Below, piece by piece: positions 9,383-57,290 of a DNA stretch of 59,962 nt. Every line of letters begins with the position of its first letter. Positions within the stretch are counted from its first letter, which is position 1. Where the stretch lies: assembly GCA_020348905.1 (NCBI GenBank), contig CP070756.1, forward strand, positions 2,982,074-3,042,035. The letters are read 5' to 3'. This DNA is from Candidatus Zixiibacteriota bacterium (GTDB lineage Bacteria; Zixibacteria; MSB-5A5; GN15; FEB-12). The notes beneath the pieces are model-generated. The model worked only from the letters and a program-made list of their open reading frames with translations, was not told the origin of the DNA and did no database searches. A program made the translations under genes and the position numbers.

Positions 9383-9383
9383 C

Positions 9384-25969: not shown

Positions 25970-26129
25970 TTAAACAGTAATAGGCTTTGTTGGTTCAAAA
26001 GTAAATAAAAAAACCGCGCGACTTCGGTCACAGCAACTGGCTGCCAACCCCGTCAAGCGGTTCAAAATACCTTTTCGGGCCGTTGTTGCAAAAGCACGGT
26101 TGGTCATCCCGGCTCATCCGGGTATCGGT

Positions 26130-26981: not shown

Positions 26982-27026
26982 ATTAAACTCTCCCGGTATC
27001 ATATATTGTCTAACCTTTACTATGAT

Positions 27027-28253
27027 TTACGAACTAGGTTCGGTCGATGTTTCATCGGGCTCTTCATCGAATCCACTCGGAGAAGGTTCCGGCGGCGCTT
27101 TGGGAATCGGTGGTGGGGCCGGAGTCGGCCCTACTCCCTCCCGCTTGTGACGCTCCCGCCAACTCGTATACGTTTTGAATCCAAAACGCGTCATGACAGC
27201 TGCACCAACGCCGGTGAGTATCGGATAACTACTGATGCATATGGACACGACAAGAAACAGTATTCCGAAGCCCTCCGGAGCAAAAGTCGAACTGAGGAGG
27301 ATTGCAGTTACAAACCACAGGCCCATGAGTGCCAAAATCCCTATCTCTGACTTGAATAGCGCGCTGCCGCTACCACCCGCCAATCGACCAGAGACTAATC
27401 GTCCGAGCTTCTCTCCAAAGGCAACCAGACCCAGTAGGATCGCAAACAGATATACGAACGGCACCAGCGGGATCAGGACGACCCCCACAATTGTTACCGC
27501 CAACAGAAGAATCACAACCGGCATGACCATTACGAAAAACAGCCCGATGAAATAGGCTTTGATCTTGCTGGTTTCGAGAAAACTTGAAATATTGCCCAAT
27601 TGACGCGGCATCAACGTTACGATAAGGAATCCGCAGAAGACGAAAAATACGGTGAAGCTCGCGACTATTATCAGGCCATCGATATCAGTCGGCCCCCGGG
27701 GCAGGACGGGCACCGGCAGCTGCTCTCCCAGAACGATGCCCCCGTCCTTTACCACAATATCGGACGCCATGATGTCGCCGTCGACGCGACCCGTGCGGGA
27801 AACCAGCACCCTGTTGTCAAGAGATGTTACGTCCCCTTTGACCCACCCCTTGACCGTGACACGGCCATAGGCAATAATATCGCCATCAACATACTCATCA
27901 TACCCAACGATTATGGAGCCGACGAACGATTTGACCTTTATTTCCTCGGTGCATCTATCCTCCACCCGCATGTAATCGCCGGCGGCGTCCCGCGGCTCAC
28001 CGGGCTGATCTCTAAGATCGGCGTCCTCGACAATTCCGGCAACGAAGGATCCCCTGGTGAAGTCGTAATACCAATCATAGCCACCGGTGTCGACGGCTGT
28101 GACACCGTCGCTGCTGAGTCTTATTTCCTGGAATACCGTATCCGAAGGAGCGTAGTCATCCGGCGCTTCCTGCGCGAAGGAAGCTCCGATGGAAAGGCTG
28201 AGGAAAAAGCTGGCGGCAAACAGGCCGTTCTTGCCCACCACGGATAAACTCAT
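27027..28253 (-). CDS. Exported bactofilin-like (polymer-forming beta-helix) domain fused to polytopic membrane domain with Pro-rich tail
   Basis: After a signal peptide (…GASFAQE) comes DGDIIAYGRVTVKGWVKGDVTSLDNRVLVSRTGRVDGDIMASDIVVKDGGIV, which is bactofilin/DUF583-like. About 6 TM helices follow, then the tail GPTPAPPPIPKAPPEPSPSG. Confidence 0.6.
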   Translation of the reverse strand: MSLSVVGKNGLFAASFFLSLSIGASFAQEAPDDYAPSDTVFQEIRLSSDGVTAVDTGGYDWYYDFTRGSFVAGIVEDADLRDQPGEPRDAAGDYMRVEDRCTEEIKVKSFVGSIIVGYDEYVDGDIIAYGRVTVKGWVKGDVTSLDNRVLVSRTGRVDGDIMASDIVVKDGGIVLGEQLPVPVLPRGPTDIDGLIIVASFTVFFVFCGFLIVTLMPRQLGNISSFLETSKIKAYFIGLFFVMVMPVVILLLAVTIVGVVLIPLVPFVYLFAILLGLVAFGEKLGRLVSGRLAGGSGSALFKSEIGILALMGLWFVTAILLSSTFAPEGFGILFLVVSICISSYPILTGVGAAVMTRFGFKTYTSWRERHKREGVGPTPAPPPIPKAPPEPSPSGFDEEPDETSTEPSS

Positions 28254-28280
28254 GACTACGTCCTATGTAAAAAACGCCTA

Positions 28281-29195
28281 TCAGTACAGGGTCACATCAA
28301 CGTTGCCGGTACCCGAAATAAGCGATACCTTCGGACCCCCGTCACCGAACTGGGCAACCAGACGCTTCCGCGAAACTGACTTTATCTCAACCGGAACCTC
28401 GGTCCGAATCTCACCGCTCTCGGTTTCTATGTCCAGCAGGCCCGATGACGATACAGGTACAGATAACGTGATCGAGCCGCTGGAAGTTTCAACAAAGAAA
28501 TCCTTGGGGCTGTCCAGTTCCGTCTGAACATTTACGGTTCCGGCAGAGGTGTTCAGATCGACGGCACCTCTGACCTGAATAATCGAAATCTTGCTCGATG
28601 TTGATTTGACCTTGATGTCCCCCTCGATCCAATGCAGGTTTATCTCACCGATCGGCTGTACCACCGTTACAGGTCCGAATATATACTCACCCGTGGTCGA
28701 GCCAACCGGATTCTCGACCACTACCTCCCCCTCAACCGACGATATTTGAACCTCTCCGTCAACACACATCACTGAAACCGAGGTCCGGGTGGGTACCGTG
28801 ATTACGAAATCGACAGCCCCGTAGGAATTCGACCCGCTGGTACCGAGGAGCTTACTCCAGAAAGACCGGCCGCGGTTGACCATTTTCAGAAAGTGGGTCT
28901 CAACACTCACCCGGTCCCTGTCCCCCCTGACCTTGATCTCGATATGATCGGCTACTTCTTCAGCCTCGTCGCGACTTGTCGCCCGCACTATCTTGACGGC
29001 ATCAATGATAACCTTATTGTCACTGCCGCCGGTGATAGTGACATTGCCTTTCAGGGCATATAGTTCGAGAACCACCGGCTCGTTTACCTCGACGATTTTC
29101 TGATAATCGAAGGTGTACTCGGCCCCCAGAAGGGACGAACCCGAGAGTAGAACAATTGCCACTATCAGTGGCTGGATGTAATGCAGCCGCGTCAT
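28281..29195 (-). CDS. DUF4097-family exported protein (putative adhesin fold)
   Basis: It has a signal peptide and repeated G.V.I/V strands (GNVTITGG, VSVMCVDGEVQISS, GEINLHWIEGDIKVKS, GAVDLNTSAGTVNV, SGSITLSV). It lies 26 nt downstream of the ECF sigma gene. Confidence 0.7.
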   Translation of the reverse strand: MTRLHYIQPLIVAIVLLSGSSLLGAEYTFDYQKIVEVNEPVVLELYALKGNVTITGGSDNKVIIDAVKIVRATSRDEAEEVADHIEIKVRGDRDRVSVETHFLKMVNRGRSFWSKLLGTSGSNSYGAVDFVITVPTRTSVSVMCVDGEVQISSVEGEVVVENPVGSTTGEYIFGPVTVVQPIGEINLHWIEGDIKVKSTSSKISIIQVRGAVDLNTSAGTVNVQTELDSPKDFFVETSSGSITLSVPVSSSGLLDIETESGEIRTEVPVEIKSVSRKRLVAQFGDGGPKVSLISGTGNVDVTLY

Positions 29196-29221
29196 AAGAC
29201 AGAAATCCTGCTAATAGCCGG

Positions 29222-29788
29222 CTAAACAACCGACCTGAGCCGCTTTTTGAGCAGCTCGCGAGCCCTGAAAATGCGGGCCTTAACGGTTCCAACCGGTATA
29301 TTCAATAAATCGGCTATTTCCTCATAGGATTTATCGTCTTTGTGCCGGTAAATTATCACTTCTCGATACTTATCTGGAAGCGAGGCAATAGCTTCTTCTA
29401 TATTATACTGCTGTTCTTTCCGCTCCAGTTCCTTCTCCGGATTAAACGAATGATCCGGCACCTCAATGCCAACCGAGCCATCCTTGGTATGAACCTCCTG
29501 GTCCAGCGACAGAGCGTTTATCCGCTTTTTTCGAAGATAATCAATTGAGCAGTTGGCAGCGATCTTATACAGCCAGGTCGAAAAGCGATACTCGCTGCGA
29601 TAACTCTCGAGCGAGGCAAAAGCTTTCATAAACGTCTCCTGAACCAGATCGTGGGCCGTTTCGTTGTTACGGACAATCTTGAAAATAATGTGGAAAATGG
29701 CCTGACGATGGCGTTCCGTTAGGCTCTCGTAAGCTCTCTGATTACCTTTCAGCGCATCGGCTATGGTTTTTGCTTCGTTGTCGTCCAA
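29222..29788 (-). CDS. ECF-type RNA polymerase sigma factor (sigma-70 regions 2 and 4)
   Basis: Region 2 reads DLVQETFMKAF...STWLYKIAANCSIDYLRK. Region 4 reads LPDKYREVIIYRH..SYEEIADLLNIPVGTVKARIFRAR. Confidence 0.9.
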   Translation of the reverse strand: MDDNEAKTIADALKGNQRAYESLTERHRQAIFHIIFKIVRNNETAHDLVQETFMKAFASLESYRSEYRFSTWLYKIAANCSIDYLRKKRINALSLDQEVHTKDGSVGIEVPDHSFNPEKELERKEQQYNIEEAIASLPDKYREVIIYRHKDDKSYEEIADLLNIPVGTVKARIFRARELLKKRLRSVV

Positions 29789-35799: not shown

Positions 35800-38700
35800 C
35801 TAAATGGATTTGGAGATCTGGTATTTCTTGATTTTTCTTCTAAGCGTGGAAAGAGGTATGTTCAGATCGGCTGACGCCCTCGATTGATTCCACTTATGCT
35901 TGATGAGGACCTTTCTTATCTGCTCTTTTTCCACCAACTGTAACGACTCGCGGTGGTTGCCGTCAAGTTTGGCACTGTACTGAATTTCGGTTGGCAAACC
36001 CGAGACATCGATTCTTTCACCCGGGTAAACTATGCAGCATCGCTCTATAAGGTTTTTCAGTTCTCTGACGTTGCCCGGCCAGTCATATGACGCCAGAGCC
36101 TGCGTCGCCGCAGTAGAAAATCTCGGTTGCCGACCGCCGCGCGAAAAGAGCGTCACAAAGTGATCAATCAACAGCATAATATCACTTCTTCTTTCCCGTA
36201 ACGGGGGGATTTCTATTGTGACCGTATTGATTCGGTACAATAGGTCCTGTCTGAATTTGCCTTCGCGTGTCATCGCTGCGAGATCTTTGTTGGTCGCGTA
36301 AACGAAGCGGATATCGGTATAGGTAGTTTTGTTACTTCCCACTCTTTCAAATTGCTGATACTCAACGGTGCGGAGTACCTTAGCTTGAACCTCGAGAGGC
36401 ATATCGCCGATCTCGTCGAGCAGCAGGGTGCCTCCGTCGGCCGCTGCGAACTTGCCCTCGCGCTCCTTGACATCGGTGGCCACGTTAGCAGCAACGCCGA
36501 ACAACTCGCTTTCTATCAAAGTTCCCGCAATCGCCGCACAGTTGAGCTTGATCAGCGGCTTACCCGAACGAAGGCTGAGGTCATGAATCATCTCGCATAG
36601 AATCTCTTTTCCGGTGCCACTCTCCCCCTGTATCAGGACGGGCGCGTTGGTTCGCGCTATTTCAGGAAGTTTGCCAAACAGTTCCAGCATCGAATCATCC
36701 TTGGTCACAAAGGCCTGCCGATTCCCCGATCGGCCGACATCCTCGACCAGTTGTTGATTGATGATACTCACGTCACGGTAGCTCTGAATGGTAGATACCA
36801 TTACCGCCATTAGATTGGCGATAGTAGTGACGTAGACGATATCACTACTGTCGAATAGAGCCGGGATGGTATGGTGGTCAAGATAAAGAACGCCCAGAAC
36901 GGTGTTTTCGATAGTGACCGGAATGCAGATTACTGAGAGAATATTGTGGGCGACTATACTCTTGTAGTTCCTCGTGCGCTTGTCCGCCAGGGCATTGTCG
37001 ACTATCAATGGATCAACATTACGGGCTACCTCCAGCGGGATGGTTGAACTAAAATCGGCTATATCCTCTAGGCTGCTCTCGTCGCATTCGACAAAGGACG
37101 AAACCCTGAGCTTGTTTGACTGCTCACTTCTTAGCAGAAGCACCCCTCGTTCAGCACCCGTCTGCTCAACGGCAAATTCCACCAGCCGTTTAAGGGATTG
37201 CCGATAGTCCTTGATGTTTTTTAGAATTTCCGAGATGCCGTGCACCGAGTCGATCAATTCGGTCAAATCCGAAGTCTCATCGGACAGGTCTTGAATCTGT
37301 AATGCGAGTTCTTTCGACATTCGCTCATTCTTCATACCGGTCGCCAGCCGGAGCGCCTGTCCAAGGAACTTCCGGGCCAGTTTCTCCTGCGATTGCCTCA
37401 AATACTGTTCAGCAATTCTCCGGCACACGATCACGGCAAGAAATACGTTCCCACTGGTTTCAAGAATTCGGAAGATTGTCTTTAAATCTCTGACTGCAGC
37501 AAGATCATCATCAGGCGGAGTAGTCGTCTGTAGAACGAGCAGCGATAAGGCCCTGAAAAAGGGGGCTCGCGACTGCTGCCCGACTTCAAGTAGCGGCCGA
37601 GCCTTTTCAAGGCACTCAGCTGCCCGATGATTGTCGGTGTTGATCAGGAAGTGGAATAAAGCCAGGCCGGCAAAGTAATAACCGCGGCAATTGATCAGTA
37701 TTTCCATCAACTCAGCGAGTCTCTGCACCGCAGTATCGTCGCCGCCATTGTATAGCCGGTTAAGGGTATCGATCAGGTGCAGCTCCGCTAGAGAAGCGGT
37801 ATCATGCTGGTCGGATAATGCCGATTCCCCGGCGCCAAGATGGAGCTCACATACGGATTGTTTGCCCTGATACATAGCCACCTCGGCGAGGCCATGGTAG
37901 ATTTTTGCGGCCGATCTGGAGCGAACTGTAGAATCGATAACATCCAGTCCCTTGTGCAACGATAGAGCACTTGCCTCAAAATCACCACGGTTACACTTGA
38001 TATAGCCTTCGCCTATATAATAGAGGACAATCGCATTTCGGTCGGGTTCACCCGCCCTGCTGGCCAGTGATCGCTGTAGCCAGTATTCGGCCTTGTTATG
38101 ATCACAAAGTCGTGAGTAGGCGTTAGCAAGGCTGTTCGCTATAATGCCCTCCAAATAACGGTCAACGGGATCGTCAATCTGCTTCAGTGCCATCTTGCCG
38201 TACCGGATGACATTACTGTGTTGGGCTAATTCTTGATATAATATGGCCAGGCCCACAATACTGCTGATCGATTTGGACAGAAGGCCATTAACCCTGGCCA
38301 CTTCAAAACTGCGCATCAGGTGCTTCTCCGACTCGCCAAAAAGACCTCTTCGCCAGTAAACGATGCCGCGAGCATAATGAACTTTTATTTCGACTTCGTG
38401 GAGATGGGCTGCTCCGGCCCGCATGATAGTGGAGTCCAGCAATTCCTCGGCTTCATCATGCCGCCCCTCTATCGACGCCAGCCAGGCCCGGGTTCGCTCG
38501 AACATCAACTCGTGGTGAAGGTCTCCGACCGATTTCGCCTGAGCAATTCCGCGCTCGACAAGCTGATTGGCCTCGTCCATAAGCCCAAGGTCTGTTGCAA
38601 CCGATACCAGATCGTACATGGCTCCGAGGTCCACTTGCGAATGCATCTCATTAAGCTCGACCAGGCTGCGGTAATACTCCGCCGCAGATGCTAATCGGCC

Positions 38701-39981
38701 CAGGGCTTGCGAAAGATACCCCAGCTCCTTGAGTGCCTTAGCGCGTAAATCCATCCTTTGGTCCGGGGTTTTCTCCAACTCATCCAAGGCCGCCCGGAAT
38801 GCAAGGAAAGACCTCAGGTACTTGCCGGTCTCCTTATGCACGCTACCGCCACCAATCAGCTTTTCAACCACCTCGGCGCCAGCCAGCGGTTGGGCTTTAT
38901 GCTGGGGTTCAAGTATGAGGTCAATCTCACCGAACAATTCACCAAGGTCTCGATCGGAGACCTGGAGGTGCCAGTAATCGCCGTGGCGCGAAACCGACGC
39001 ACGCTGAACCACAGATTTAAACAGACGGATAGCTGCCGCTCTACTCTTTGAATACACGGCCCCCAGATCGTCCAGAAGTTCATCGGACAATCCCAGTATC
39101 CTATTGGCCCTTATTAACGATTTTTTCAACGTGTCGGTATCCGGTGAAGCTAACGATCTTTGATCACGGAAACTGCTCAGCACCATCGACGATAACAGGT
39201 CTTTGTTGGCCGAACCCAGTACTGCAGAATCGAATAATCCGGCATCTGCGGTGGCGTTCAACAGGGCATACGGACGGTTCAACGGATAACTGTCGGTCAA
39301 AAGCTCAGCCAGCTTCTCTACACCGTCAGCTTTGACCTTCAGGCTGTCATCGAACTCAGAAGGGTGGAGCCTGTAATACTCAACACAATCCTTGAAAGCA
39401 ATACCAAGCGAGTAGTTGTCCGACTGTACCAGAACGGCGTCGTTAGACAGAATCTCCGGAGCTATATGGCGGGGAGTGCCGAAAATCTTGGCGTTCGGAG
39501 AGGAACCAACCGCAGTCAGAAAATCCAGGTCAACCAGAACGAGCCTGTGAGACGCGGCCGAGGTGCCGATCATGAAATTGCTGAGCTTCAAATCGCAATG
39601 GACCAGCTCTCTGAGGTGAACCAGGTCTACCAGCAGGCACAACTGAACGAGGACACTATCAAAGTTCTGCCAGAACAGTGACGGCGTGAGCTGCTGCCAT
39701 CTCTGACTGTCCAGATAAGGGTACTCAAAGAATAGCTGCCCTTTTTCATGGTACTTGTTTTTGGCAGTGATTATCCTGTCACTATTGAGAAGTCGCTGGC
39801 AACGGTATGAATTATTGAGAATCGAGGATACCGTCTGAGCGTCGATGGGTGACTCCGGATTAGGTGTCTTGACAAAGGACTTTGTTCCCGAGGCGGGACA
39901 ACTGGCTACCCACGACTGACTTAAGTCGTTCTGCGACAGTAAAGTTTCTAAACTCAATCTGGCCCCTTCAGAAAAAGACAT
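35800..39981 (-). CDS. Multidomain regulator: Ser/Thr-kinase-like, TPR/helical repeats, GAF, sigma-54-interaction-type AAA+, Fis-type HTH
   Basis: The protein is 1393 aa. The kinase-like domain has HCDLKLSNF, DLDF, GTPRHIAPE. The long helical region contains AEYYRSL-type TPRs. The GAF segment reads GAERGVLLL...LGVLYLDH. The AAA+ domain has VLIQGESGTGKE, GGTLLLDEIGDM, FRQDLLYRIN, and the HTH has QSRASADLNIPLSTLRRKIKKY. Confidence 0.85.
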   Translation of the reverse strand: MSFSEGARLSLETLLSQNDLSQSWVASCPASGTKSFVKTPNPESPIDAQTVSSILNNSYRCQRLLNSDRIITAKNKYHEKGQLFFEYPYLDSQRWQQLTPSLFWQNFDSVLVQLCLLVDLVHLRELVHCDLKLSNFMIGTSAASHRLVLVDLDFLTAVGSSPNAKIFGTPRHIAPEILSNDAVLVQSDNYSLGIAFKDCVEYYRLHPSEFDDSLKVKADGVEKLAELLTDSYPLNRPYALLNATADAGLFDSAVLGSANKDLLSSMVLSSFRDQRSLASPDTDTLKKSLIRANRILGLSDELLDDLGAVYSKSRAAAIRLFKSVVQRASVSRHGDYWHLQVSDRDLGELFGEIDLILEPQHKAQPLAGAEVVEKLIGGGSVHKETGKYLRSFLAFRAALDELEKTPDQRMDLRAKALKELGYLSQALGRLASAAEYYRSLVELNEMHSQVDLGAMYDLVSVATDLGLMDEANQLVERGIAQAKSVGDLHHELMFERTRAWLASIEGRHDEAEELLDSTIMRAGAAHLHEVEIKVHYARGIVYWRRGLFGESEKHLMRSFEVARVNGLLSKSISSIVGLAILYQELAQHSNVIRYGKMALKQIDDPVDRYLEGIIANSLANAYSRLCDHNKAEYWLQRSLASRAGEPDRNAIVLYYIGEGYIKCNRGDFEASALSLHKGLDVIDSTVRSRSAAKIYHGLAEVAMYQGKQSVCELHLGAGESALSDQHDTASLAELHLIDTLNRLYNGGDDTAVQRLAELMEILINCRGYYFAGLALFHFLINTDNHRAAECLEKARPLLEVGQQSRAPFFRALSLLVLQTTTPPDDDLAAVRDLKTIFRILETSGNVFLAVIVCRRIAEQYLRQSQEKLARKFLGQALRLATGMKNERMSKELALQIQDLSDETSDLTELIDSVHGISEILKNIKDYRQSLKRLVEFAVEQTGAERGVLLLRSEQSNKLRVSSFVECDESSLEDIADFSSTIPLEVARNVDPLIVDNALADKRTRNYKSIVAHNILSVICIPVTIENTVLGVLYLDHHTIPALFDSSDIVYVTTIANLMAVMVSTIQSYRDVSIINQQLVEDVGRSGNRQAFVTKDDSMLELFGKLPEIARTNAPVLIQGESGTGKEILCEMIHDLSLRSGKPLIKLNCAAIAGTLIESELFGVAANVATDVKEREGKFAAADGGTLLLDEIGDMPLEVQAKVLRTVEYQQFERVGSNKTTYTDIRFVYATNKDLAAMTREGKFRQDLLYRINTVTIEIPPLRERRSDIMLLIDHFVTLFSRGGRQPRFSTAATQALASYDWPGNVRELKNLIERCCIVYPGERIDVSGLPTEIQYSAKLDGNHRESLQLVEKEQIRKVLIKHKWNQSRASADLNIPLSTLRRKIKKYQISKSI

Positions 39982-40938: not shown

Positions 40939-41175
40939 CTACATCCTGCGCTGTCAACCCTCGATCAACCCTTCGTCCCCGCTTTTGAACTGCGCGAAAC
41001 TGTAACTTGCTATCCAGCGTGGATATAATCTATCATGTCTTGGGCTCACCACAATCGACATCATCGAACATAATTCATTGTCAATCATTGGACTGCTAAA
41101 CCAGATAGTTTTTCGCCGGCCCGGCACGGATGTTGAATTGGTCTATACCGGACAATACAAAACAGAGGAGGAATC

Positions 41176-41601
41176 ATGTATCGGCGCATAATAAATCTAC
41201 TGACACTGGGGGCATTCGCAGTGTATTCGATAGGGCTCACCGGATGTACCAAGTTGACCAGATTGTCGGTCGATGAAGCAATAAGATCGGAATCATGTCA
41301 GGTTCAGCACACCAACGAGCTCAAGGGCGGAAATATTGTGGCCGTGTACACACCAGACAAGGTTTACCGGTTCGAAAAAAACTTCGCCTATATCAACACT
41401 GCCAGTCAGACAATAGAGGGGTATTCATTAGATAACAAAGAAGTCAGTATTCCCCTTACCGAGGTCACCAGTATCGAAATCAAAAGCACCGATTGGACGA
41501 AGACCCTATTGCTCGCGGGCGCGGGGATAGGCATATGTGTGGCATTGGCGATAGCAGCGTACGAACCGGAGCAGGGTGAGGGGTGGTCGCTCTTAGAATA
41601 A
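41176..41601 (+). CDS. Paralogous lipoprotein 1 (one repeat module, C-terminal TM helix)
   Basis: It has an RBS (gaggagg) and a signal peptide with lipobox LTGC. There is one FE/FD...G...IP..EV.SI module, then KT plus the helix LLLAGAGIGICVALAIAAY and the tail GEGWSLLE. Confidence 0.75.
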   Translation: MYRRIINLLTLGAFAVYSIGLTGCTKLTRLSVDEAIRSESCQVQHTNELKGGNIVAVYTPDKVYRFEKNFAYINTASQTIEGYSLDNKEVSIPLTEVTSIEIKSTDWTKTLLLAGAGIGICVALAIAAYEPEQGEGWSLLE

Positions 41602-41629
41602 TCAGAATCACTCAATAAAGGAGGAGAAA

Positions 41630-42268
41630 ATGTTCAGGCAAATAATCAGTCTAATAACGTTGGCAGCCCTGATGATCAACACCATTGGGCTGACTGGCTG
41701 CACCAGCACGACTAAGTTTCCTATCGAAGAAGTTAAAAACAGCCCGCCCAAAAAAGTCACCCGGCTGAAGTTTGACAACGAGGAGCAGTTAGTATGGGAT
41801 TCTGAGGGTGCGACCTATCGACGTGAGGCAAAACAATTCGTCGGCGTAACCACACTCGGAGACGTCAAGCGCGTCCCGGCCGATGCCGTCGACAGCGTCT
41901 TGTATGTCATCGGCGATAGCCCTCAGGTGTTCTCACAGGACATCGGAACATACACCATTGCGGAATCAAAGAGAAGCCCGAGGAATCTGGCGGGTAAGGT
42001 TAAGGGGGTGCTCAAGGGGCAGGAGGAAATCCGGTTCGTTGGTCGCCGTGGCAGGATTAACTGGCTCGATCAAACGGTGGCGGGCAGAGCCGTAACCGGC
42101 GAGTCGCTGGTCATGCCCTTTGCGGAAGTTGATCAGGTAATCATCAAGCAACCGGCGCCGGGCAAAACCGCGTTGCTGGTTATCGGCCTGACAGCGCTAG
42201 CCGGAATTGTCGTCCTTGGTATTGCCGCCAGTCAAACGGATTTTGGATGGGGCAGTAGCCGTTATTGA
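41630..42268 (+). CDS. Paralogous lipoprotein 2 (two modules, C-terminal TM helix)
   Basis: It has an RBS (aaggagg), lipobox LTGC, the helix ALLVIGLTALAGIVVLGIAA after GKT, and the tail DFGWGSSRY. Confidence 0.75.
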   Translation: MFRQIISLITLAALMINTIGLTGCTSTTKFPIEEVKNSPPKKVTRLKFDNEEQLVWDSEGATYRREAKQFVGVTTLGDVKRVPADAVDSVLYVIGDSPQVFSQDIGTYTIAESKRSPRNLAGKVKGVLKGQEEIRFVGRRGRINWLDQTVAGRAVTGESLVMPFAEVDQVIIKQPAPGKTALLVIGLTALAGIVVLGIAASQTDFGWGSSRY

Positions 42269-42324
42269 CAGTATCCACACAAGCGAAAAAGCCCCCGCGC
42301 AGAAACCATGAAGGAGAGAAAGCC

Positions 42325-42978
42325 ATGAACCTGATAAGACTTAAACAGACTCTGAGGATTATGACGATCCTCATCGCGGCCGGGCTTACTGGCTGCACCA
42401 AGACGATCTCTATCCCCGGCCGTGAAGTGAGAGTCCCTCCGACGCCGGTCATCGAGCGGGTCACCTTAGCAGACCGAGGTGAGGTGCAATTCGACGAAAC
42501 CGGCGGCCGGTATCTTCAGCGAATCGGTTTGATACAGGGCGTATCTACTGAAGGAGCACGCGAGAACCTGAAGGTCGGCGCTATCGACTCGGTTTATTTC
42601 ACCTTCTCCAATGACACGGCCCACTATATCGGCGACGGAAGGACTTTTGCCAAAGAGCAGGAGACACTGCGCGAAGATAGGATCAAAGGGACTATTACGG
42701 CCGTGAATCTTGGTTCGGAAGAAATACGCTTCGACTCCAAAAACGGTCATGTCGATTCGCTGAATTCAGCCATCGTCGGAGTGACCAGCTCAGGGGAACT
42801 CATAAGTGTGCCCATTGACTCGGTCCACAGCCTCAAGGTGAAACGACAGGATAAGCTGAAAACTTTTCTGCTGCTTGGGGGAGTAGCTGCTGTCGCTGTC
42901 GTTCTGGCTACCGCCAACTACGGACCTGATGAGGACACTCAAATCGATCTTCCCTGCATAGGCTGGGATTGCGACTGA
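42325..42978 (+). CDS. Paralogous lipoprotein 3 (two modules, C-terminal TM helix)
   Basis: The ATG at 42325 is preceded by gaaggagag. It has lipobox LTGC. The modules are EVQFDETGGRY..IQGVSTEG...IDSVYF and EIRFDSKNGHVDSLNSAIVGVTSSGELISVPIDSVHSL. The C-terminus has the helix after LKT and the tail IGWDCD. Confidence 0.8.
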   Translation: MNLIRLKQTLRIMTILIAAGLTGCTKTISIPGREVRVPPTPVIERVTLADRGEVQFDETGGRYLQRIGLIQGVSTEGARENLKVGAIDSVYFTFSNDTAHYIGDGRTFAKEQETLREDRIKGTITAVNLGSEEIRFDSKNGHVDSLNSAIVGVTSSGELISVPIDSVHSLKVKRQDKLKTFLLLGGVAAVAVVLATANYGPDEDTQIDLPCIGWDCD

Positions 42979-43035
42979 CGATACTGCTTTTGTGGGTAAT
43001 TGGACCCGTATGTCTATTGGAAAGGAGGCAGGAAG

Positions 43036-43680
43036 ATGAAAAGGGGGAGCATCAAATTGGAAGTCGGGCTGGCGTTGCTGACGGCCTTGCTGGTTATTTC
43101 CGGCTGTACCGGCCGACCCACGTCCAGAACCTACAGGATGAGAATCGACGAGGTCAGGATTCCACCCCGGGTGAAAGTCAGCAAGGCTTTGCTCAAAGAC
43201 GGCAGCCATCTGGTCTTCGATAGCAGCGGCGGCTGGTATCTGCTTCGAGCCGAAATGATACAGGGCACAACCGTCGACGGACTTCGCCAGCAGGCCAAAA
43301 TCAAAGACATCGATTCGGTTTTCTTCACTATCGAAGGTGACACCGCGCAGCACACCCGGACCGGCCGGGCATTCAAAGACGAGCAAAAAAGAACCTATCG
43401 TGATACAATCAAGGGAGACATCAAAGCCGTGGCCACCCGTTACCAGGAGATCAATTTCAACCGGCATTACGGGAAAATCGACTCGCTTAACCGAGCCGTG
43501 GTGGGAGTTACCAACGCCAACGAGAATGTCAGCATACCATTCGATTCTGTTTATGCCTTGAAAGTGGAGCGCCCCGACATGTGGGCCAAAACCGAGGTGG
43601 TCCTTGCCGTAGCCGCTGGTGCAGCACTCGTCATTTATGTCTTGGTTTCCGGTGACTTCTGGGATTGGGGTAGTGACTGA
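43036..43680 (+). CDS. Paralogous lipoprotein 4 (two modules, C-terminal TM helix)
   Basis: The ATG at 43036 is preceded by aaggagg. It has lipobox ISGC. The segment INFNRHYGKIDSLNRAVVGVTNANENVSIPFDSVYALKV is close to lipoproteins 3 and 5. The tail is DFWDWGSD. Confidence 0.8.
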   Translation: MKRGSIKLEVGLALLTALLVISGCTGRPTSRTYRMRIDEVRIPPRVKVSKALLKDGSHLVFDSSGGWYLLRAEMIQGTTVDGLRQQAKIKDIDSVFFTIEGDTAQHTRTGRAFKDEQKRTYRDTIKGDIKAVATRYQEINFNRHYGKIDSLNRAVVGVTNANENVSIPFDSVYALKVERPDMWAKTEVVLAVAAGAALVIYVLVSGDFWDWGSD

Positions 43681-43744
43681 ACGGTAGGGATAGGTGACAA
43701 TTAATACGGCGCGGGCTTAGTCCTGCGGCACGAAAGGCAAAATT

Positions 43745-44404
43745 ATGTACAGGCCAACTGTTGGTTTCATGACACTTGCGGCTCTGTTAATTCTCTCGAT
43801 AGGGCTGTCAGGGTGTACAAGAACTGTCACCATGGAAAGACACGAAATGAGAATTGCCCCCAGGATCAGCATAAACGAAGTCCGGCTGACCGACGGCAGC
43901 CGGGTAAGCTTTGATATTACCGGCGCCAGGTATCTGTCCCGAAGCGAAGTGATAAAAGGGCTTACCGAAGATGGCGTCGCCCGGAAGATCAAGATAGGTG
44001 ATGTCGACTCGCTGTTCTATACAGGTATTGACGATTCCGTCAACTATGCCCAATCAGGTGCGGTGTTTAAAGAGAGCCACAAAGTGTACCGCAAAAAATC
44101 AATAAGGGGTGTTATTCGGGGGTTGTCCACGCGCTACTACAATATCGAATTCGACAAATACCACGGTCAGATTGATACTCTCGCGCGAGCTGTCGTAGGT
44201 GTGACGACTGCCGGCAATGCGGTGAGTGTACCGATCGACTCCGTATACAGCATTAGCCTCGAGCGATTCGACGCCGGCAAAAGCTTTCTGACAACGGCGG
44301 CAATTATGGACGTCGTCTGGGATGGAACACCGGACCTGTACTGGGAATACGATCTTTTGGAAGAGGTGCTCGACGAATTCATGAATGAAGATGATGACAA
44401 TTAA
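43745..44404 (+). CDS. Paralogous lipoprotein 5 (two modules, helix degraded, acidic tail)
   Basis: It has lipobox LSGC and the module IEFDKYHGQIDTLARAVVGVTTAGNAVSVPIDSVYSISL. The C-terminus lacks a full hydrophobic helix and ends LYWEYDLLEEVLDEFMNEDDDN. Confidence 0.75.
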   Translation: MYRPTVGFMTLAALLILSIGLSGCTRTVTMERHEMRIAPRISINEVRLTDGSRVSFDITGARYLSRSEVIKGLTEDGVARKIKIGDVDSLFYTGIDDSVNYAQSGAVFKESHKVYRKKSIRGVIRGLSTRYYNIEFDKYHGQIDTLARAVVGVTTAGNAVSVPIDSVYSISLERFDAGKSFLTTAAIMDVVWDGTPDLYWEYDLLEEVLDEFMNEDDDN

Positions 44405-45658: not shown

Positions 45659-48319
45659 ATGGCGGCAGACGAATCAAACGACGATCAGACTCAGTCCTTC
45701 GTCGCTCTGGCAAAAGACACCGCGGTTTCACACTACACGATTATCGACAAGATTGGGTCAGGGGGGATGGGTGACGTGTACCTGGCCTGGGACACCGAGC
45801 TTGACCGCACCGTTGCCCTCAAATTCCTGCACCTCAATCTCTGCCGGGCCGAGGATTGTCGCAAGCGCTTCAAGCGCGAGGCTCAGGCCGCGGCAAGACT
45901 GGACCACGCCAACATTGTCACCGTCCATGAAGTCGGCGAGTTCCAGGGCCGACCGTATTTCGTAATGCAGCATGTTGAAGGGCACTCGCTGCGGCATTTG
46001 ATTAAACAGCGAGAACTCTCCCTTGAGCAAACCATCGACCTGGCGATCCAGATTTGCGAAGGACTTCGCGAAGCGCATGAGCTTGGCATCATTCATCGAG
46101 ACATCAAATCCTCCAATATCCTGCTCGACGGCCGCGGCAACCCGAAGTTGGTGGACTTTGGCCTGGCCACTATTGCCGGCACCGACAAACTGACCAAGCC
46201 GGGCTCTACGATGGGGACGGTTGGGTATATGTCGCCGGAACAGGCCGAGGGCAAACAAGTTGACCAGCGGTCCGACCTGTTTTCCCTTGGCGTCGTCCTG
46301 TATGAGATGATCACCGGGCGGCGTCCCTTCGACCGTGATAATGAAATCGCCACCAGCAAAGCCATCGTAACCGATACGGCCGAGCCACTGGCGCGGTACA
46401 AATCCGGAATCCCGGCCGAGCTTCAGCACTCGATCGAAAAGGCGCTGCAGAAGGATCCGGACACGCGCTATCAAAGTGTTAACGAATTTCTGGCCGACCT
46501 GCGCTTGATTAAGCGGCAGATGGATTCAGGCATAACCGGGCCATCAGCCGAGCAGCTGTCGCCGCGCAGACCAGGGCGCCGCGGGGCGGCCGTCGCAGTG
46601 CTCTTCTTAACGGCCCTGGCCGTTATGTTCTGGCTAAACCCGACCATCCGGCAAGCAGCCTTGGAGATGTTGGGATTCGACGTGGATCGCACAGCCCGGC
46701 ATCTGGCCGTGTTGCCCTTTACAAACCTCGGTGAGACCGATGAAGGCCGCGCGCTATGCGATGGCCTGTTGGAAACGCTAACCAGCAAACTCACCGAAAT
46801 TGAAAAATTCCAATCCGCGCTCTGGGTCGTGCCGGCCAGCGAGGTGCGCCAGCGGAAAGTCAACAGTGCCAGCCAGGCCCGTCGGACCTTTGGTGCTACT
46901 CTGGCTGTCACCGGCAGCCTTCAGCAGATTGACGGGTACATCCGCATGACCCTGAACCTGGTCGATACGAAAACACAACGCCAACTCCGGTCGGTGGTAA
47001 TCGATGATTCGGCTGCCGACGTTTCATCACTCCAGGATTCAACCGTGCTTATGCTGGCGGATATGCTTCAGGTACAGCTCCAGCCGCAGCAACGGCAGAG
47101 CCTGATGGCCGGAGGCACCGCCGAACGTGAAGCGTACTTGCTTTACGTTAAGGCGCGTGGACACCTGGCCCGGTTTGAAAAAATAGAGAATATCGACACG
47201 GCCATTGCGGCATTCAAGCAAGCGCTTGACATCGACTCAGCCTATTCCCTGGCTTATGCCGGACTGGGGGAAGCTTACTGTCGCAAGTATGAAGTCCTCG
47301 CCGAACCGGATTACGAGGAATTGGCCATATACAACAGCCGGCGAGCCATCGAACTCAATGATGAGGCTGCTCCTGTTTACGCCACCCTGGGCGTCATTCA
47401 TCATGGCCGGGGCAGGTATGAACAGGCCGTTTCGCAATTCGAGCAGGCCCTGAGACTCGATTCAGCCAGCCGCAGCTCCTATCGCGGACTGGCTGCCGCC
47501 TACACGGCCCTTAATAAGAATCCCGAAGCCGAATCCACGTACAAGGAAATCATCAAGTTGTGGCCCGACCACTGGTCAGGCTACGTAGACCTGGGGCTGT
47601 TCTACCAGCGGCGCGGTCGCGTCGACGACGCACTCGCCCAGGTGGACCGCGCCACCCGCCTTGAACCGGAGGGTTATGCTGCCTGGAATAACGTGGGCGT
47701 TCTATACTATCGGTTGGGGCGATATGATGACGCCCGCAAAGCCTGGGAACGGTCCTGTGAGATTGAACTGACCTTCGGAACCTGCTCCAACCTGGGCATG
47801 CTTTACCATACGGAGAAACGTTATCAGGAGGCCGCCGAGGCCTACCGGAAGGCGCTGGTACTGAACGACCAGGATTACCGGCTCTGGATAAACCTTGCCT
47901 CGTCCCTGTATCAGGTACCGGGAGCTCGCGAGGAAGCCGTTACCGCCTACCGGGAGGCCATCGTAAGAGCCGAACGACAATTGACAATAAATCCTCGAGG
48001 TACCGAACTGTTGTCCAGCCTGGCCGATTGCTATGCCGTGCTTGGTGACCGTAACAGGGCCATATCGTACATTCAGCAGGCGTTATCTCAAGCCCCCGAC
48101 GATGTAGAGGTCATGAGCACCGCCTGCCTCGTTTACGAGCTCCTCGGCGAGCGCGATACCGCCCTGATGTGGATAGCGGAGGCTGTCAACCGCGGACACC
48201 TGCCTGACGACATCGAATCGCTGCCGGAGATGCAGGGTCTGACCGGCGATCCGAGGTATCAGGATCTTATCAGCACCGGCAGCGTTGAATCCCGGGGGGA
48301 TACGACTTCACGTCGGTAG
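45659..48319 (+). CDS. Ser/Thr protein kinase with TM segment, periplasmic domain and C-terminal TPR repeats
   Basis: Kinase motifs are GSGGMGDVY, VALK, HRDIKSSN, DFGLA, GYMSPE. The TM helix is AAVAVLFLTALAVMFWL. Multiple TPRs follow (AYAGLGEAY, VYATLGVIHH, AWNNVGVLYY ...). Confidence 0.9.
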   Translation: MAADESNDDQTQSFVALAKDTAVSHYTIIDKIGSGGMGDVYLAWDTELDRTVALKFLHLNLCRAEDCRKRFKREAQAAARLDHANIVTVHEVGEFQGRPYFVMQHVEGHSLRHLIKQRELSLEQTIDLAIQICEGLREAHELGIIHRDIKSSNILLDGRGNPKLVDFGLATIAGTDKLTKPGSTMGTVGYMSPEQAEGKQVDQRSDLFSLGVVLYEMITGRRPFDRDNEIATSKAIVTDTAEPLARYKSGIPAELQHSIEKALQKDPDTRYQSVNEFLADLRLIKRQMDSGITGPSAEQLSPRRPGRRGAAVAVLFLTALAVMFWLNPTIRQAALEMLGFDVDRTARHLAVLPFTNLGETDEGRALCDGLLETLTSKLTEIEKFQSALWVVPASEVRQRKVNSASQARRTFGATLAVTGSLQQIDGYIRMTLNLVDTKTQRQLRSVVIDDSAADVSSLQDSTVLMLADMLQVQLQPQQRQSLMAGGTAEREAYLLYVKARGHLARFEKIENIDTAIAAFKQALDIDSAYSLAYAGLGEAYCRKYEVLAEPDYEELAIYNSRRAIELNDEAAPVYATLGVIHHGRGRYEQAVSQFEQALRLDSASRSSYRGLAAAYTALNKNPEAESTYKEIIKLWPDHWSGYVDLGLFYQRRGRVDDALAQVDRATRLEPEGYAAWNNVGVLYYRLGRYDDARKAWERSCEIELTFGTCSNLGMLYHTEKRYQEAAEAYRKALVLNDQDYRLWINLASSLYQVPGAREEAVTAYREAIVRAERQLTINPRGTELLSSLADCYAVLGDRNRAISYIQQALSQAPDDVEVMSTACLVYELLGERDTALMWIAEAVNRGHLPDDIESLPEMQGLTGDPRYQDLISTGSVESRGDTTSRR

Positions 48320-54359: not shown

Positions 54360-57290
54360 CTACCTAATAAGGACCATCTTCTTAGATTCTTTGAAATCCG
54401 CCGCCTCGAGCCGGTAAAGGTATACCCCCGAAGACAGGTTAGTCGAAGCGAAGTCGATTTCTATCAGACCCGGTCCGTCGCGGCCGGCGAACTCCCAGAC
54501 CTTGCGGCCGAGGATATTATAGACACTGAGAGTGTAGTTGGCGTTGTTTCTCAAGTTAAACGTGATCCTGGTTCCGCTGTTGAACGGGTTGGGATAATTC
54601 TGATGCAGGGCAAATTCTTCCGGCAGAGGCGGCGGCGGTGGCGGCGGCTCGCCCTCAATGATGAAATCCGCATAAGCCTCAAACGCGTTCGCCGCTGTGG
54701 CCTGGATGTCGGCAAAGGTGTGACCTGCGATAAACGCAAACGTGACCGTATCCACCTCGCCTTCGGCTAACGAAGTCTGCGCCGCTACCACCTGGAACAG
54801 ATCGAAGGAACCTGTCCGGAGCGAAACCGGCGTGGCCAAACCACGCCTCAGCGCACTCATCTTGTCTTCATTAAAGTAGCATCCCCAGCCTAAAGGCGGA
54901 CACGAGATCATCGACGTCGAGTCGGTGTAAACCGTCACCAGTTGACCCTGTAGCACTTTTATGCCGCGGTAATCCGACAAGCCTGAGCCCGAGTTGTAGG
55001 CCATCCATGCAAATTGATCCGTTGATTCAAACCCGGCGGCGTTGCTGCTAAAATCAACAATGTCCCAGTCGCAATGAATGCCGACATAGAGATTATCGAT
55101 GTCACCCGAACCGCTGTTTCTCAGAACATACTGTATAATGACCATGTCCTGGTAGGGCGAGGTTTCAAACGAGTAACTGTTCTGTTCGATCGTCAGCCCG
55201 ATCGGGTCCTCGGCCCTATCGTCGGTGAACCGCGCATAACTCTGCTGTGCCACCCCTTGAAACGGCGGAATGAACTCGAAAGTCCCGCCTGACACCACGC
55301 CAAAGTCACCATCCGGCTGCCCCACCGCCGTCTGTACTCCATCGGAAACCCGGTCGACGCCGGTGCCAATCATCAGGCCGCCGTCGAAAAGTTCATTGAC
55401 TCCCCCCATAAACCTGAACCCTTCCCCGCCGCCCGGCCAGAAGGAGTCATCGGCCATTCCGAACGTACCGAAATTGCTTATGCTGAATTCGACCGTACCG
55501 GTCGTGTGGGTCACTAAGCCGCGCTCGCTGAGCGGGTCAACTACGATATAGAGTTGCCTTGTTACCGAGTAATTGCTGCCTTCAATTAAAAGGCCAATCG
55601 GTAACGTTGAGCCTACTTTGACAGTATCCGCTACCCGAATCCGAAAAGCCGTCTGTCCGGAAACTGTCTGCCCCTCGGCGATGGTGCCAAAGCCAGTCGT
55701 TCCGGCCAGAATCGATACGGCATCATTGTTGTCTATCAGGGTACCCGTCACTCCGGTGACGGTTGCCCCGAAATTCTTCAGCACCAGGGTCCCGGTCACT
55801 TCATCACCCGGATCAATCGGGGCATGGTTGAACGAATATACCCTGACGTTCGGCTCCGGGTTGACCCCGTCAAGGGCGTTCAGGGCAGCCATACAGTCAA
55901 TCAGGCCCCAACCATAGATGTTGTTAGGTAGAAACTCACCCAGTTCATTAGTTGACGTCAGAATCGCTTCCTTGATTTCATCAACGGTGGCGTTGGGATT
56001 CTTCTGTCTGAGCAATGCAACCAAACCGGAAACGTGAGGTGCCGCGAATGAAGTGCCCGACCCAAAGCTATATGACGCTCCGGGCACGGGAAATCTTACC
56101 AACACACCGGGTGCTACCACATTCGGTTTTACTGCCAGGGGGTTGCAGTCCGATGGCCCCCGCGACGACGTTGGCGAAATTACTCCTGTCGCATGATTGA
56201 TACTTCCAATCGCAAAGCAATCTAACGAGTCAAGCGCCCGGTTAGCCGGGTTACGAATGGTCGATGGCAGCGATCCCTCGTTGCCGGCCGAGAAGATGTT
56301 GACGATTCCCAGGGCCTCGGTATTATCTATCATGGTGTAGAAGATATTCTCACAGTCGATGCCCGAAACCCCCCAGCTGTGGCTGATTACATCCGGGACA
56401 TCGTCGATCGTATTCGGGTCACGATCAGGGTTGGATGCCCACTCGAAACCGTCGATGATCGAAGCTCCGTCAACATCAACCACTCCCCCCGCTATCCACT
56501 TCGCATCAAGAGCAACCCCAACTGTATCGCCCCTTAAGTCGTCGTGTCCTACCACGAGCCCGGTCGTTGCTGTGCCGTGCCTGGGGTCTGCGCCGCCTAT
56601 CACCGGCAGGGTATGCGGAAAAGGCTCACCGCCGACCGGATCGAACCAGGCCGCCGCCGAATCACCATCAAGCCCCTTCCAGTTGTTGTATATCGCCGGA
56701 TGAAGTCCATCAACGCCCGTATCAAGAATACATACCACTCGTCCCTGTCCGGTATATCCGGCCGCCCACGCCGCCGGCGCATTAATATACGCGAGATTGG
56801 CTTCAACCGAAGCCGACGAAACTGACCCTGACGATATCTTCTCATTGGCAACTGATACTACCTTCGGTGCTGAAAAGATGATTTCAACATCGCTTCGAGC
56901 CGACAGTTCAGTGAGCTGCTCAACCATTACTTCAGCCTCAACAACATTTATTATCCAATGTCCCTTGGGCGGCCTGCCTGCTGTCTGTTTGCTTCGATTA
57001 ATCGAATGAAGATGGTCCAGCAGGTCCCGCTGAGCAGCAGCATGATTGGATTTCAGACGGTCCAAAGCCAGGCGGTATCTTTCCGCCCTGGTGGGAGCTT
57101 TCAAACTGGCTTTGAGATTGGCCGGACTCTCTACCTGGGGCAGTTGAATCCAAACCTTGATAAGATCGGCCGCCTTGCTCGTGGTCACTTTCCGAGCCAG
57201 TTCGTCCGACAACCGACCCGCGGCCGCGCTGGAGTAAAGCAACGTAAATGTTAGAATAAACGCTACAGTACTTTTTGTTCTGAAAATCAC
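54360..57290 (-). CDS. Subtilisin-like S8 serine peptidase with T9SS-type C-terminal sorting domain
   Basis: The catalytic contexts are VCILDTGVD, HGTATTGLVVG and GSGTSFAAPHVSGL. It has a signal peptide, a PPPPPP linker and the CTD NYPNPFNSGTRITFNL...GVYLYRLEAADFKESKKMVLIR. Confidence 0.9.
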   Translation of the reverse strand: MIFRTKSTVAFILTFTLLYSSAAAGRLSDELARKVTTSKAADLIKVWIQLPQVESPANLKASLKAPTRAERYRLALDRLKSNHAAAQRDLLDHLHSINRSKQTAGRPPKGHWIINVVEAEVMVEQLTELSARSDVEIIFSAPKVVSVANEKISSGSVSSASVEANLAYINAPAAWAAGYTGQGRVVCILDTGVDGLHPAIYNNWKGLDGDSAAAWFDPVGGEPFPHTLPVIGGADPRHGTATTGLVVGHDDLRGDTVGVALDAKWIAGGVVDVDGASIIDGFEWASNPDRDPNTIDDVPDVISHSWGVSGIDCENIFYTMIDNTEALGIVNIFSAGNEGSLPSTIRNPANRALDSLDCFAIGSINHATGVISPTSSRGPSDCNPLAVKPNVVAPGVLVRFPVPGASYSFGSGTSFAAPHVSGLVALLRQKNPNATVDEIKEAILTSTNELGEFLPNNIYGWGLIDCMAALNALDGVNPEPNVRVYSFNHAPIDPGDEVTGTLVLKNFGATVTGVTGTLIDNNDAVSILAGTTGFGTIAEGQTVSGQTAFRIRVADTVKVGSTLPIGLLIEGSNYSVTRQLYIVVDPLSERGLVTHTTGTVEFSISNFGTFGMADDSFWPGGGEGFRFMGGVNELFDGGLMIGTGVDRVSDGVQTAVGQPDGDFGVVSGGTFEFIPPFQGVAQQSYARFTDDRAEDPIGLTIEQNSYSFETSPYQDMVIIQYVLRNSGSGDIDNLYVGIHCDWDIVDFSSNAAGFESTDQFAWMAYNSGSGLSDYRGIKVLQGQLVTVYTDSTSMISCPPLGWGCYFNEDKMSALRRGLATPVSLRTGSFDLFQVVAAQTSLAEGEVDTVTFAFIAGHTFADIQATAANAFEAYADFIIEGEPPPPPPPLPEEFALHQNYPNPFNSGTRITFNLRNNANYTLSVYNILGRKVWEFAGRDGPGLIEIDFASTNLSSGVYLYRLEAADFKESKKMVLIR

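Follow-up and report, generated by a model that had tools for sequence, protein, structure and literature searches.

A tandem array of five same-strand genes at positions 41176–44404 of a 59,962-nucleotide stretch of the Candidatus Zixiibacteriota chromosome (the window; 52% G+C) encodes paralogous members of an unnamed protein family. We read the array as a sigma-54-dependent operon of five dual-anchored SH3-barrel envelope lipoproteins, which would reside in the inner membrane with their barrels at the periplasmic face, and we give this reading as a whole about an even chance of being correct. The family itself is real, clean, and widespread in uncultured lineages. The map of open reading frames (ORFs) and their translations gave the following genes, referred to as G1 to G5 (aa, amino acids).

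41176–41601, + strand: G1, 141 aa, one module; signal peptide and lipobox LTGC at aa 1–24; module at aa 52–104 (41329–41487); predicted transmembrane helix at about aa 109–128 (41500–41559), then the tail EPEQGEGWSLLE
41630–42268, + strand: G2, 212 aa; lipobox LTGC; modules at 41753–41911 and 41993–42151; predicted transmembrane helix at about aa 181–201 (42170–42232), then the tail QTDFGWGSSRY
42325–42978, + strand: G3, 217 aa; lipobox LTGC; modules at 42448–42606 and 42688–42846; predicted transmembrane helix at about aa 180–198 (42862–42918), then a tail with IGWDCD
43036–43680, + strand: G4, 214 aa; lipobox ISGC; modules at 43174–43332 and 43414–43572; predicted transmembrane helix at about aa 188–206 (43597–43653), then the tail DFWDWGSD
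43745–44404, + strand: G5, 219 aa; lipobox LSGC; modules at 43868–44026 and 44108–44266; transmembrane helix degenerate (FLTTAAIMDVVW), then a long acidic tail; no C-terminal hydropathy window above 1.6

The intergenic gaps from G1 to G5 are 28, 56, 57, and 64 bp. A previous reading of this DNA from its letters alone (the sequence-only reading) had described five same-strand paralogs with gaps of 28–64 bp, and the ORF map, the translations, and blastp all agree with it. It had also given each gene its own Shine-Dalgarno sequence, which holds for the AGGAG-type sites of G1–G4 and fails for G5, where only a weak GAAAGG is present. G3 and G4 start at the ATG codons at 42325 and 43036, which are preceded by GGAG-type ribosome sites, and not at the TTG codons upstream. 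In blastp comparisons, G3, G4, and G5 are 36–43% identical to one another (E 1e-44 to 1e-47), G2 is 25–29% identical to these three (E about 1e-20), and G1 aligns with the C-terminal half of the other paralogs (E 1e-7 to 1e-12). The paralogy of G1–G5 is far beyond chance. A search of the 60-kb window with the family hidden Markov model (HMM) found no further copies.

None of the five proteins has a Pfam or NCBIfam match below E 0.05, and ten diverse homologs gave only chance-level matches to these libraries, far below the curated cut-offs. When each protein and the isolated modules were checked against profiles, no confident match to a characterised family emerged, in keeping with the sequence-only reading. 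Searches of the Protein Data Bank (PDB) by sequence, using the core profile, the module profile, and the C-terminal domain of the long-form members described below, returned nothing significant. Word-indexed homolog searches found almost only the window’s own proteins and a few close relatives. Scans of genome contigs and metagenomes with array-derived patterns confirmed nothing, and a second metagenome scan gave four short contigs. An exhaustive HMMER search covering 1.84 billion cluster representatives yielded 380 representatives at E ≤ 1e-3, 90 at ≤ 1e-10, and 17 at ≤ 1e-30. The genomes that could be named belong to uncultured lineages of Ignavibacteria/Bacteroidota type. The architecture counts given hereafter rest on 150 representatives listed of the 380, among which P0086 and P0113 are repetitive false hits.

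The mature part of each protein is built from a repeated module. The module HMM detects a single copy in G1 and two copies per protein in G2–G5, the copy numbers of the sequence-only reading, with a module length of about 52 aa in place of its approximately 45. When the first modules of 60 family members and their second modules were each made into a profile, HHalign aligned the two profiles over 52 columns with a probability of 99.2% and an E-value of 1.7e-19, demonstrating an internal repeat. Among the representatives, one module is found in 26 proteins, two in 96, three in 26, and four in 2. The consensus is approximately I-x-x-V-x-L-x-d-G-x-x-[IV]-x-F-D-x-x-G-G-x-Y-x(5)-I-x-G-x-T-x-d-G-x-x-[IV]-x-[IV]-P-x-x-x-V-x-x-V, and conservation is concentrated on Gly, Phe, Tyr, Pro, Asp, and hydrophobic positions. 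The family alignments contain no catalytic-looking residue set: neither His nor Ser is conserved, and Cys is conserved only in the lipobox. The module is therefore read as non-enzymatic, and probably serves as a structural or binding unit rather than an enzyme.

We then turned to predicted structures. The AlphaFold2 model of G4, computed from a 10-row alignment, has a mean predicted local distance difference test score (pLDDT) of 81. It contains two small all-β domains, residues 46–99 (pLDDT in the 90s) and 128–180 (80–91), together with a signal-peptide helix (3–24), a linker helix (110–122), and a transmembrane helix (182–204). The model of G1, computed from a 5-row alignment, has a mean pLDDT of 64 overall and of 75–84 in the module. 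With the G1 model as query, the top local Foldseek matches are 2k57, 2rb6, 2ra2, 3fif, and 3bdu, at probabilities of 0.99–1.0, target TM-scores of 0.62–0.71, and root mean square deviations of 1.6–2.9 Å over 46–54 columns; Tudor and LSm domains come next. With the G4 model, 2rb6 is the only high-probability compact match. The Foldseek E-values are weak (0.02–0.3), as expected for a 50-residue domain. A phmmer search with Escherichia coli YgdI identifies the matched entries as YgdI/YgdR homologs, and YgdI itself matches PF06004 (DUF903) at 7e-24. On these models, the predicted fold of the module is an SH3-like small barrel, the same as that of the DUF903 lipoproteins YgdI and YgdR. The module had been called unrecognised, and as to sequence it does lack a Pfam or NCBIfam family; its fold, however, is recognisable in the AlphaFold2 models, with DUF903 proteins as the best PDB matches. 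Membership of DUF903 by sequence was considered and rejected, as Pfam, NCBIfam, and HHalign gave nothing that reaches a curated cut-off: the PF06004 and NF033216 profiles have no match to G1–G5 at E up to 1, and the relative P0026 matches NF033216 (YgdI/YgdR) at E 0.016, its 15 bits falling short of the cut-off of 42.

All five products start with a positively charged n-region; an uncharged h-region comes next and leads up to LTGC, LTGC, LTGC, ISGC, and LSGC in G1 to G5, respectively, with the lipobox Cys at residue 24 and Thr at +2 throughout. All five conform to the lipoprotein rule, with [LVI][ASTVI][GAS]C within the first 35 or so residues, and the signal peptide and lipobox previously assigned to every product are confirmed by this rule-based reading, with canonical [LI][TS]GC in five of five. 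Only two columns are invariant in the 60-member alignment, namely the lipobox Cys and one module Gly, and the Cys and the Gly preceding it are the most conserved positions of the family. The simple pattern xx[GAS]C occurs in 117 of the 144 representatives starting with Met, and most of the others are missed because the regular expression is narrow or their start is truncated. The median position of the lipobox-type Cys is 22, and 91 of the 117 matches have Thr or Ser at +2; at −3 and −2, a minority of representatives carry non-canonical residues. Tail anchoring dependent on the Tat pathway was rejected because the twin-arginine motif is not conserved: RR occurs in G1 only, whereas G2–G5 and most homologs have RQ, RK, KR, or RP.

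At the other end of the proteins, the C-terminal segment reaches a Kyte-Doolittle hydropathy of 2.0–2.4 in G1–G4, and no C-terminal segment of G5 exceeds the threshold, bearing out the earlier description of a helix and Trp-containing tail in G1–G4 with the helix lost in G5. In the 123 representatives listed with such a segment, the hydrophobic run comprises a median of 23 uncharged residues, and the tail after it has a median length of 10 residues. A K-T motif is conserved just before the helix. The 10 residues preceding the helix carry a mean net charge of +1.41 (88 positive, 18 negative), and the tail, rich in Asp, Gly, Glu, Phe, and Trp, carries −1.55 (78 negative, 15 positive). The helices are 27% Gly plus Ala, compared with 3% Gly in the signal-peptide h-regions, and a small-xxx-small-xxx-small pattern is present in 49 of them.

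At least 14 representatives are long forms of 570–650 aa, in which the lipobox, one to three modules, and the helix are followed by a conserved domain of about 380 aa. This domain begins ...ATKESCPFVYSYDGxxYVFDAEPLGGA, later contains NEVxETQY...WGSNMIREM, and matches nothing by sequence in Pfam, NCBIfam, or the PDB. Scanning the GTDB species representatives gave 44 long-form loci, L009 to L052, nearly all in metagenome-assembled genomes (MAGs) of Ignavibacteria/Ignavibacteriota or ‘Bacteroidetes’. As the helix is internal in the long forms, it is not in general a cleavable C-terminal sorting signal, and it is best described, from sequence, as a true membrane segment. The ‘sorting-like segment’ of the sequence-only reading is accordingly not upheld: apart from the internal helix, the basic cluster is absent and no sortase-type gene is found among the window ORFs scanned. 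Its remark that the tail lacks the basic cluster of known sorting signals is correct, the tail being acidic and positive in only 15 of 123. Immediately upstream of the long-form gene lies a radical-SAM/SPASM enzyme in 21 of the 44 loci, and immediately downstream an unannotated protein of about 400 aa in 27 of the 44 (for example L009, 8640–9932 and 11897–13093; proteins P0033, P0034, and P0068). This set looks like a separate three-gene module in Ignavibacteria.

Tandem arrays are a trait of the family. Wherever a locus was recovered via a short-form member, two or more members lie side by side, so that homologs occur in conserved arrays rather than as scattered singletons:

L001 and L002 (JGI): two adjacent family genes, with a Gly-rich 197-aa membrane protein before them
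L003 (NCBI MAG): at least three adjacent family genes
L004 (NCBI MAG): three adjacent family genes
L005 (metagenome): three adjacent family genes, with the same Gly-rich partner as L001 and L002
L006 (metagenome): two adjacent family genes
L007 (metagenome): three adjacent family genes
L008 (metagenome): two adjacent family genes
L053–L056 (ENA, JGI, Logan): two adjacent family genes each
L051 (Ignavibacteriaceae MAG): five adjacent family genes

L056 resembles the window in that its one-module gene comes before a two-module gene. L051 has four short forms (254–268 aa, with three modules, lipobox, and C-terminal helix) in tandem with one long form. Its last short form and the long form have nearly identical N-termini, and short and long forms are therefore recent relatives. 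The Gly-rich 197-aa protein (L001 3087–3680; L002 998–1591; L005 1–503; L008 3–89) is encoded directly upstream of family genes, has no Pfam match, and sits behind a perfect sigma-54 promoter in one clade; as it has no homolog in the window, it is clade-specific and not a universal partner. A membrane-spanning Ser/Thr kinase-TPR protein also adjoins the array, both in the window (45659–48319, + strand) and in L001 (178–2799, − strand). The two share their full architecture, with 35% identity over 678 aa (E 5e-91). We did not retain it as a conserved partner, as such kinases are numerous in these genomes (three in the window) and the adjacency may be coincidental. Nor is the PALP gene of L001 an ortholog of the window’s PALP gene, the two being only 24% identical.

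The close relatives L003 and L004 allow the selection acting on the array to be estimated. G2 is 76% identical to its ortholog P0006, with a ratio of nonsynonymous to synonymous substitution rates (dN/dS) of 0.23, and G3 is 81% identical to its ortholog P0005, with a dN/dS of 0.32–0.35. The convergent α/β hydrolase gene after the array is 94% identical in the relative, with a dN/dS of 0.12. The window carries G4 and G5 between G3 and the hydrolase; at this place the relative has a single gene, P0017, only 27–32% identical to either. On these sequences, selection is purifying but relaxed, and gene content turns over at the 3′ end of the array. The idea of a diversifying surface set finds weak support here, since the orthologs are under purifying selection and only the last array slots turn over. 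Recent gene conversion among the paralogs is unlikely because their amino-acid identity is at most 43% and dS is saturated for most pairs compared.

Two features upstream of G1 bear on regulation:

41122–41137, + strand: sigma-54-type −24/−12 element cGGCACGgatgTTGaa, with GG at 41123–41124 and TTGA for TTGC at −12, about 40 nucleotides upstream of the G1 ATG
35800–39981, − strand: candidate regulator, a 1393-aa sigma-54 activator, about 1.2 kb upstream of the array

The element is one base longer than previously given (41122–41136). Compared with TGGCACG-N4-TTGCW, it matches at 12 of 13 core positions with correct spacing and has A for C at −12. Apart from this element, the 60-kb window contains no exact GGCACG-N4-TTG, and we estimate that about 0.5 would be expected by chance (120 kb, both strands). 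The one-mismatch pattern is not enriched relative to shuffled sequence, and it is therefore the position of the element that counts. In L001 and L002, whose family genes are about 25% identical to those of the window, a perfect CGGCACGcaccTTGCA (CGGCACG-N4-TTGCA) lies about 45 nucleotides upstream of the operon’s first gene; by our own estimate, the chance of this 10-base pattern in the 290-bp spacer is about 3e-4. The contig of a G1 ortholog, L053, keeps ACGGATGTTGA and 46 of 50 positions of the 5′ untranslated region, and ends inside the −24 box. Sigma-54 control of the window clade and the L001 clade is likely. The sequence-only reading had treated the promoter as unproven; the element and its GA for GC stand as described, but the perfect site in a relative and the activator 1.2 kb upstream earn it more credit.

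The nearest upstream genes, both on the opposite strand, encode an S-adenosylmethionine (SAM) methyltransferase and the sigma-54 activator. The activator’s Pfam domains are Sigma54_activat (3.9e-55), AAA_lid_14, HTH_8, GAF_2, a partial Pkinase, and TPR. Its Pkinase match covers profile positions 49–242, leaving the Gly-rich loop region unmatched, and the kinase motifs read HCD for HRD and DFL for DFG, suggesting that it may be a pseudokinase-sensor activator. Around the long-form genes, GAF/sigma-54 activators occur within 10 kb in 11 of the 44 loci. The rpoN gene is not among the genes of the window. A direct repeat, TCAACCCT, is present at 40954–40972 in two copies with 11-bp spacing. It precedes the sigma-54-like element by about 160 bp and lies just past the start codon of the methyltransferase gene, which is transcribed divergently; it could be an activator binding site or due to chance.

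Taken together, we propose that the locus is one sigma-54-dependent operon for five paralogs of an unnamed envelope-protein family. The products would be exported by Sec and lipidated on Cys24. In G1–G4, the Gly/Ala-rich C-terminal helix would hold the protein in the inner membrane, so that the barrels, tethered at both ends, would lie at the periplasmic face and the acidic aromatic tail would be placed across the membrane. The neighbouring activator may switch the operon on upon an envelope or environmental signal, in parallel with stress-regulated small lipoproteins such as YgdI or with the sigma-54-driven Psp response. The barrels could act as binding or spacer modules, the paralogs could associate laterally through their helices, and G5, which lacks the helix, might be free for outer-membrane sorting or for a role as a mobile partner. 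The function would be that of regulated, non-enzymatic envelope modules.

Several points weigh against this reading. The charge pattern around the helix is inverted with respect to the positive-inside rule and fits an N-out/C-in stop-transfer segment badly, and it is mainly for this reason that our confidence in the simple topology is only moderate. This pattern and the helix composition may leave room for outer-membrane insertion, a C-out orientation, or obligate oligomers. The lipidation and topology calls are rule-based readings of the sequence. The DUF903 link is structural only: one of 46 isolated modules touches PF06004, at E 0.065, and HHalign places the module profile in register with a six-sequence DUF903 alignment at a probability of 4.4% and E 0.009. 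In addition, this family and DUF903 are both functionally uncharacterised. With regard to regulation, the −12 box is TTGA and not TTGC, with the same A in the one ortholog available; no consistent sigma-54 consensus site was found near the long-form genes in 44 loci, and the AT-rich sequence read upstream of the Ignavibacteriaceae array showed none either. The promoter comparison covers two independent lineages, and it is by proximity that the activator is connected with the array.

The features that distinguish the array can also be accounted for in other ways. Tandem, divergent paralogs (24–43% identity), array content that turns over between close relatives (G4 and G5 versus one paralog, 27–32% identical), and orthologs evolving two to three times faster than the neighbouring hydrolase (dN/dS 0.23–0.35 versus 0.12) would suit an orphan immunity (antitoxin) array, in which periplasm-facing lipoproteins neutralise interbacterial toxins as do the immunity clusters of type VI secretion systems (T6SS) or contact-dependent inhibition (CDI). 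We regard this as unlikely, since neither the annotated ORFs of the 60-kb window nor the related loci showed a toxin, T6SS, CDI, or Rhs gene, one architecture prevails family-wide, including long forms with a large extra domain, a dedicated sigma-54 promoter would be unusual for immunity genes, and the dN/dS values are well below 1. The inverted charge bias, which does not fit an inner-membrane stop-transfer anchor, instead raises the possibility of outer-membrane helical lipoproteins resembling Wza or SlyB, whose Gly/Ala-rich helix would span the outer membrane in an oligomer and expose the tail on the surface. The +2 rule of E. coli governs the retention of lipoproteins in the inner membrane, and by this rule Thr or Ser at +2 is not a retention residue; the 27% Gly plus Ala of the helices and the small-xxx-small-xxx-small pattern in 49 of 123 are likewise compatible with oligomers of this kind. 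Yet the helices are uniformly hydrophobic and not amphipathic, the long-form domain of about 380 aa would need to cross the outer membrane, and no route is known by which such a helix would traverse the periplasm; we consider this slightly less probable than the immunity array.

Neither end of the protein is easily reinterpreted. Were the proteins not lipoproteins, an uncleaved N-terminal signal anchor and the C-terminal helix would form a two-helix hairpin with the barrels as a periplasmic loop. The rule-based nature of the lipidation call and the minority of representatives with non-canonical −3/−2 residues leave some space for such a hairpin, but the family-wide conservation of the Cys and its preceding Gly is hard to explain unless the Cys is modified, and all five window proteins have canonical [LI][TS]GC; we judge the hairpin to be quite improbable. 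Least probable of all, in our estimate, is that the proteins are substrates of a C-terminal sorting system of exosortase, rhombosortase, or sortase type, which would cleave off the helix and tail and attach the protein elsewhere. Although the conserved K-T motif before a C-terminal helix with a short tail and the many paralogs per genome recall such substrates, the tail is acidic and not basic, the NCBIfam sorting-signal models have no match at E up to 1, no sortase-like enzyme occurs among the window ORFs scanned by Pfam (several large ORFs having no Pfam match), the same helix is internal in long-form members, and it is absent from G5 and some other members. There is also a more ambitious proposal. 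Here the family would constitute a regulated trans-envelope scaffold or signalling device of the Fibrobacteres–Chlorobi–Bacteroidetes (FCB) group without a characterised counterpart, made of DUF903-like barrel hetero-oligomers that assemble via Gly/Ala helices and insert these helices in an unconventional orientation or membrane, as the inverted charge bias hints. The short forms would be interchangeable with the long forms, which join the same periplasmic modules to the domain of about 380 aa and whose gene often lies beside the radical-SAM/SPASM enzyme. We hold it to be unlikely, to the same degree as the immunity array.

If the inner-membrane operon is the correct interpretation, an unnamed protein family comprising at least 380 sequence clusters is defined, and the whole-protein profile (A2) and the module profile (A8) could seed its definition. 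The dual anchor with the inverted charge bias poses a small, testable puzzle for the rules of membrane-protein topology. The family does not touch on any open question of long standing, and there is no sign of an unusual biochemical activity. What is new is the unnamed sequence family, the duplication of the module within the protein, the added C-terminal helix with its acidic aromatic tail, the organisation in tandem arrays including long forms, and the probable control by sigma-54.

The remainder of the window contains tRNA genes, genes for PanB, HPPK, MscL, sigma factors, and three Ser/Thr kinases, as well as a DUF3078 protein and an FG-GAP/FlgD_ig protein. A 976-aa subtilase (54360–57290, − strand) has the C-terminal sorting domain Por_Secre_tail of the type IX secretion system (4.2e-9), which suggests that the host has such a system and belongs to the FCB group. 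Along with the occurrence of the long forms in Ignavibacteria/Bacteroidota, the gene content of the window would point to a diderm of that group. Four large ORFs (776, 788, 461, and 544 aa; 4609–10769, − strand, and 2906–4540, + strand) gave no match to Pfam at E 1e-6. The window ORFs scanned, several large ones of which lack a Pfam match, yielded no toxin, secretion-system, or sortase-type genes. An apparent envelope-stress cluster occupies 23119–29788 on the − strand, and a second HtrA gene lies at 12126–13628. The members of the cluster are:

29222–29788, − strand: sigma factor of extracytoplasmic function (ECF) type
28281–29195, − strand: DUF4097 ‘toastrack’ protein
27027–28253, − strand: bactofilin-domain protein
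26130–27002, − strand: LiaF-like_C protein
24563–25969, − strand: HtrA-type protease with PDZ domain
23119–24573, − strand: PDZ protein

Compared with known systems, the family resembles the substrates carrying PEP-CTERM, LPXTG, and GlyGly-CTERM signals in having a short conserved motif, a C-terminal hydrophobic helix, and a short tail. It differs from them in having an acidic aromatic tail in place of a basic cluster, and a helix that is internal in the long forms; no sorting-signal model matched and no sorting enzyme was found. Transmembrane helices are carried by CyoA-type lipoproteins. These and the DUF4349 ‘C-tail’ candidate, a protein with a lipobox and a C-terminal helix (PMC10924467), share with the family a lipoprotein signal peptide and a membrane helix; given the DUF4349 precedent, the combination of lipid anchor and transmembrane segment is not as unusual as the sequence-only reading held. 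Their folds are unrelated to that of the family, which has an acidic tail and no conserved twin-arginine. Psp is an envelope-stress operon controlled by sigma-54 and PspF through the pspA promoter. As in Psp, a putative sigma-54-type promoter with an activator gene nearby would drive small membrane-associated envelope proteins in the array. The two are not related in sequence or fold, and the activator near the array has an unusual kinase-like/TPR/GAF sensory region.

The closest likeness is to the widespread lipoproteins of DUF903/YgdI-YgdR (PF06004; NF033216; PDB 2k57, 2rb6, 2ra2, 3fif/2jn0, 3bdu, 2rd1, and 5cai). Both families have the lipobox Cys and a five-stranded SH3-like barrel of about 50 aa, seen here in predicted models, with the strand/turn pattern in register; no significant sequence relationship between them was found. 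DUF903 proteins are single-domain, about 75 aa long, and devoid of a C-terminal helix, whereas the present family has one to four modules, a linker helix, a C-terminal transmembrane helix, and tandem arrays. The window proteins in particular, with 141–219 aa, one or two modules, and a transmembrane helix in all except G5, are not small single-domain proteins. The solved DUF903 structures come from Proteobacteria, and the family described here from Ignavibacteria/Bacteroidota-type genomes where these could be named. YgdI is reported to be regulated by Cpx and RpoS, and its function is unknown (PMC6153362). If the fold link holds, whatever function is established for one of the two families would also bear on the other.

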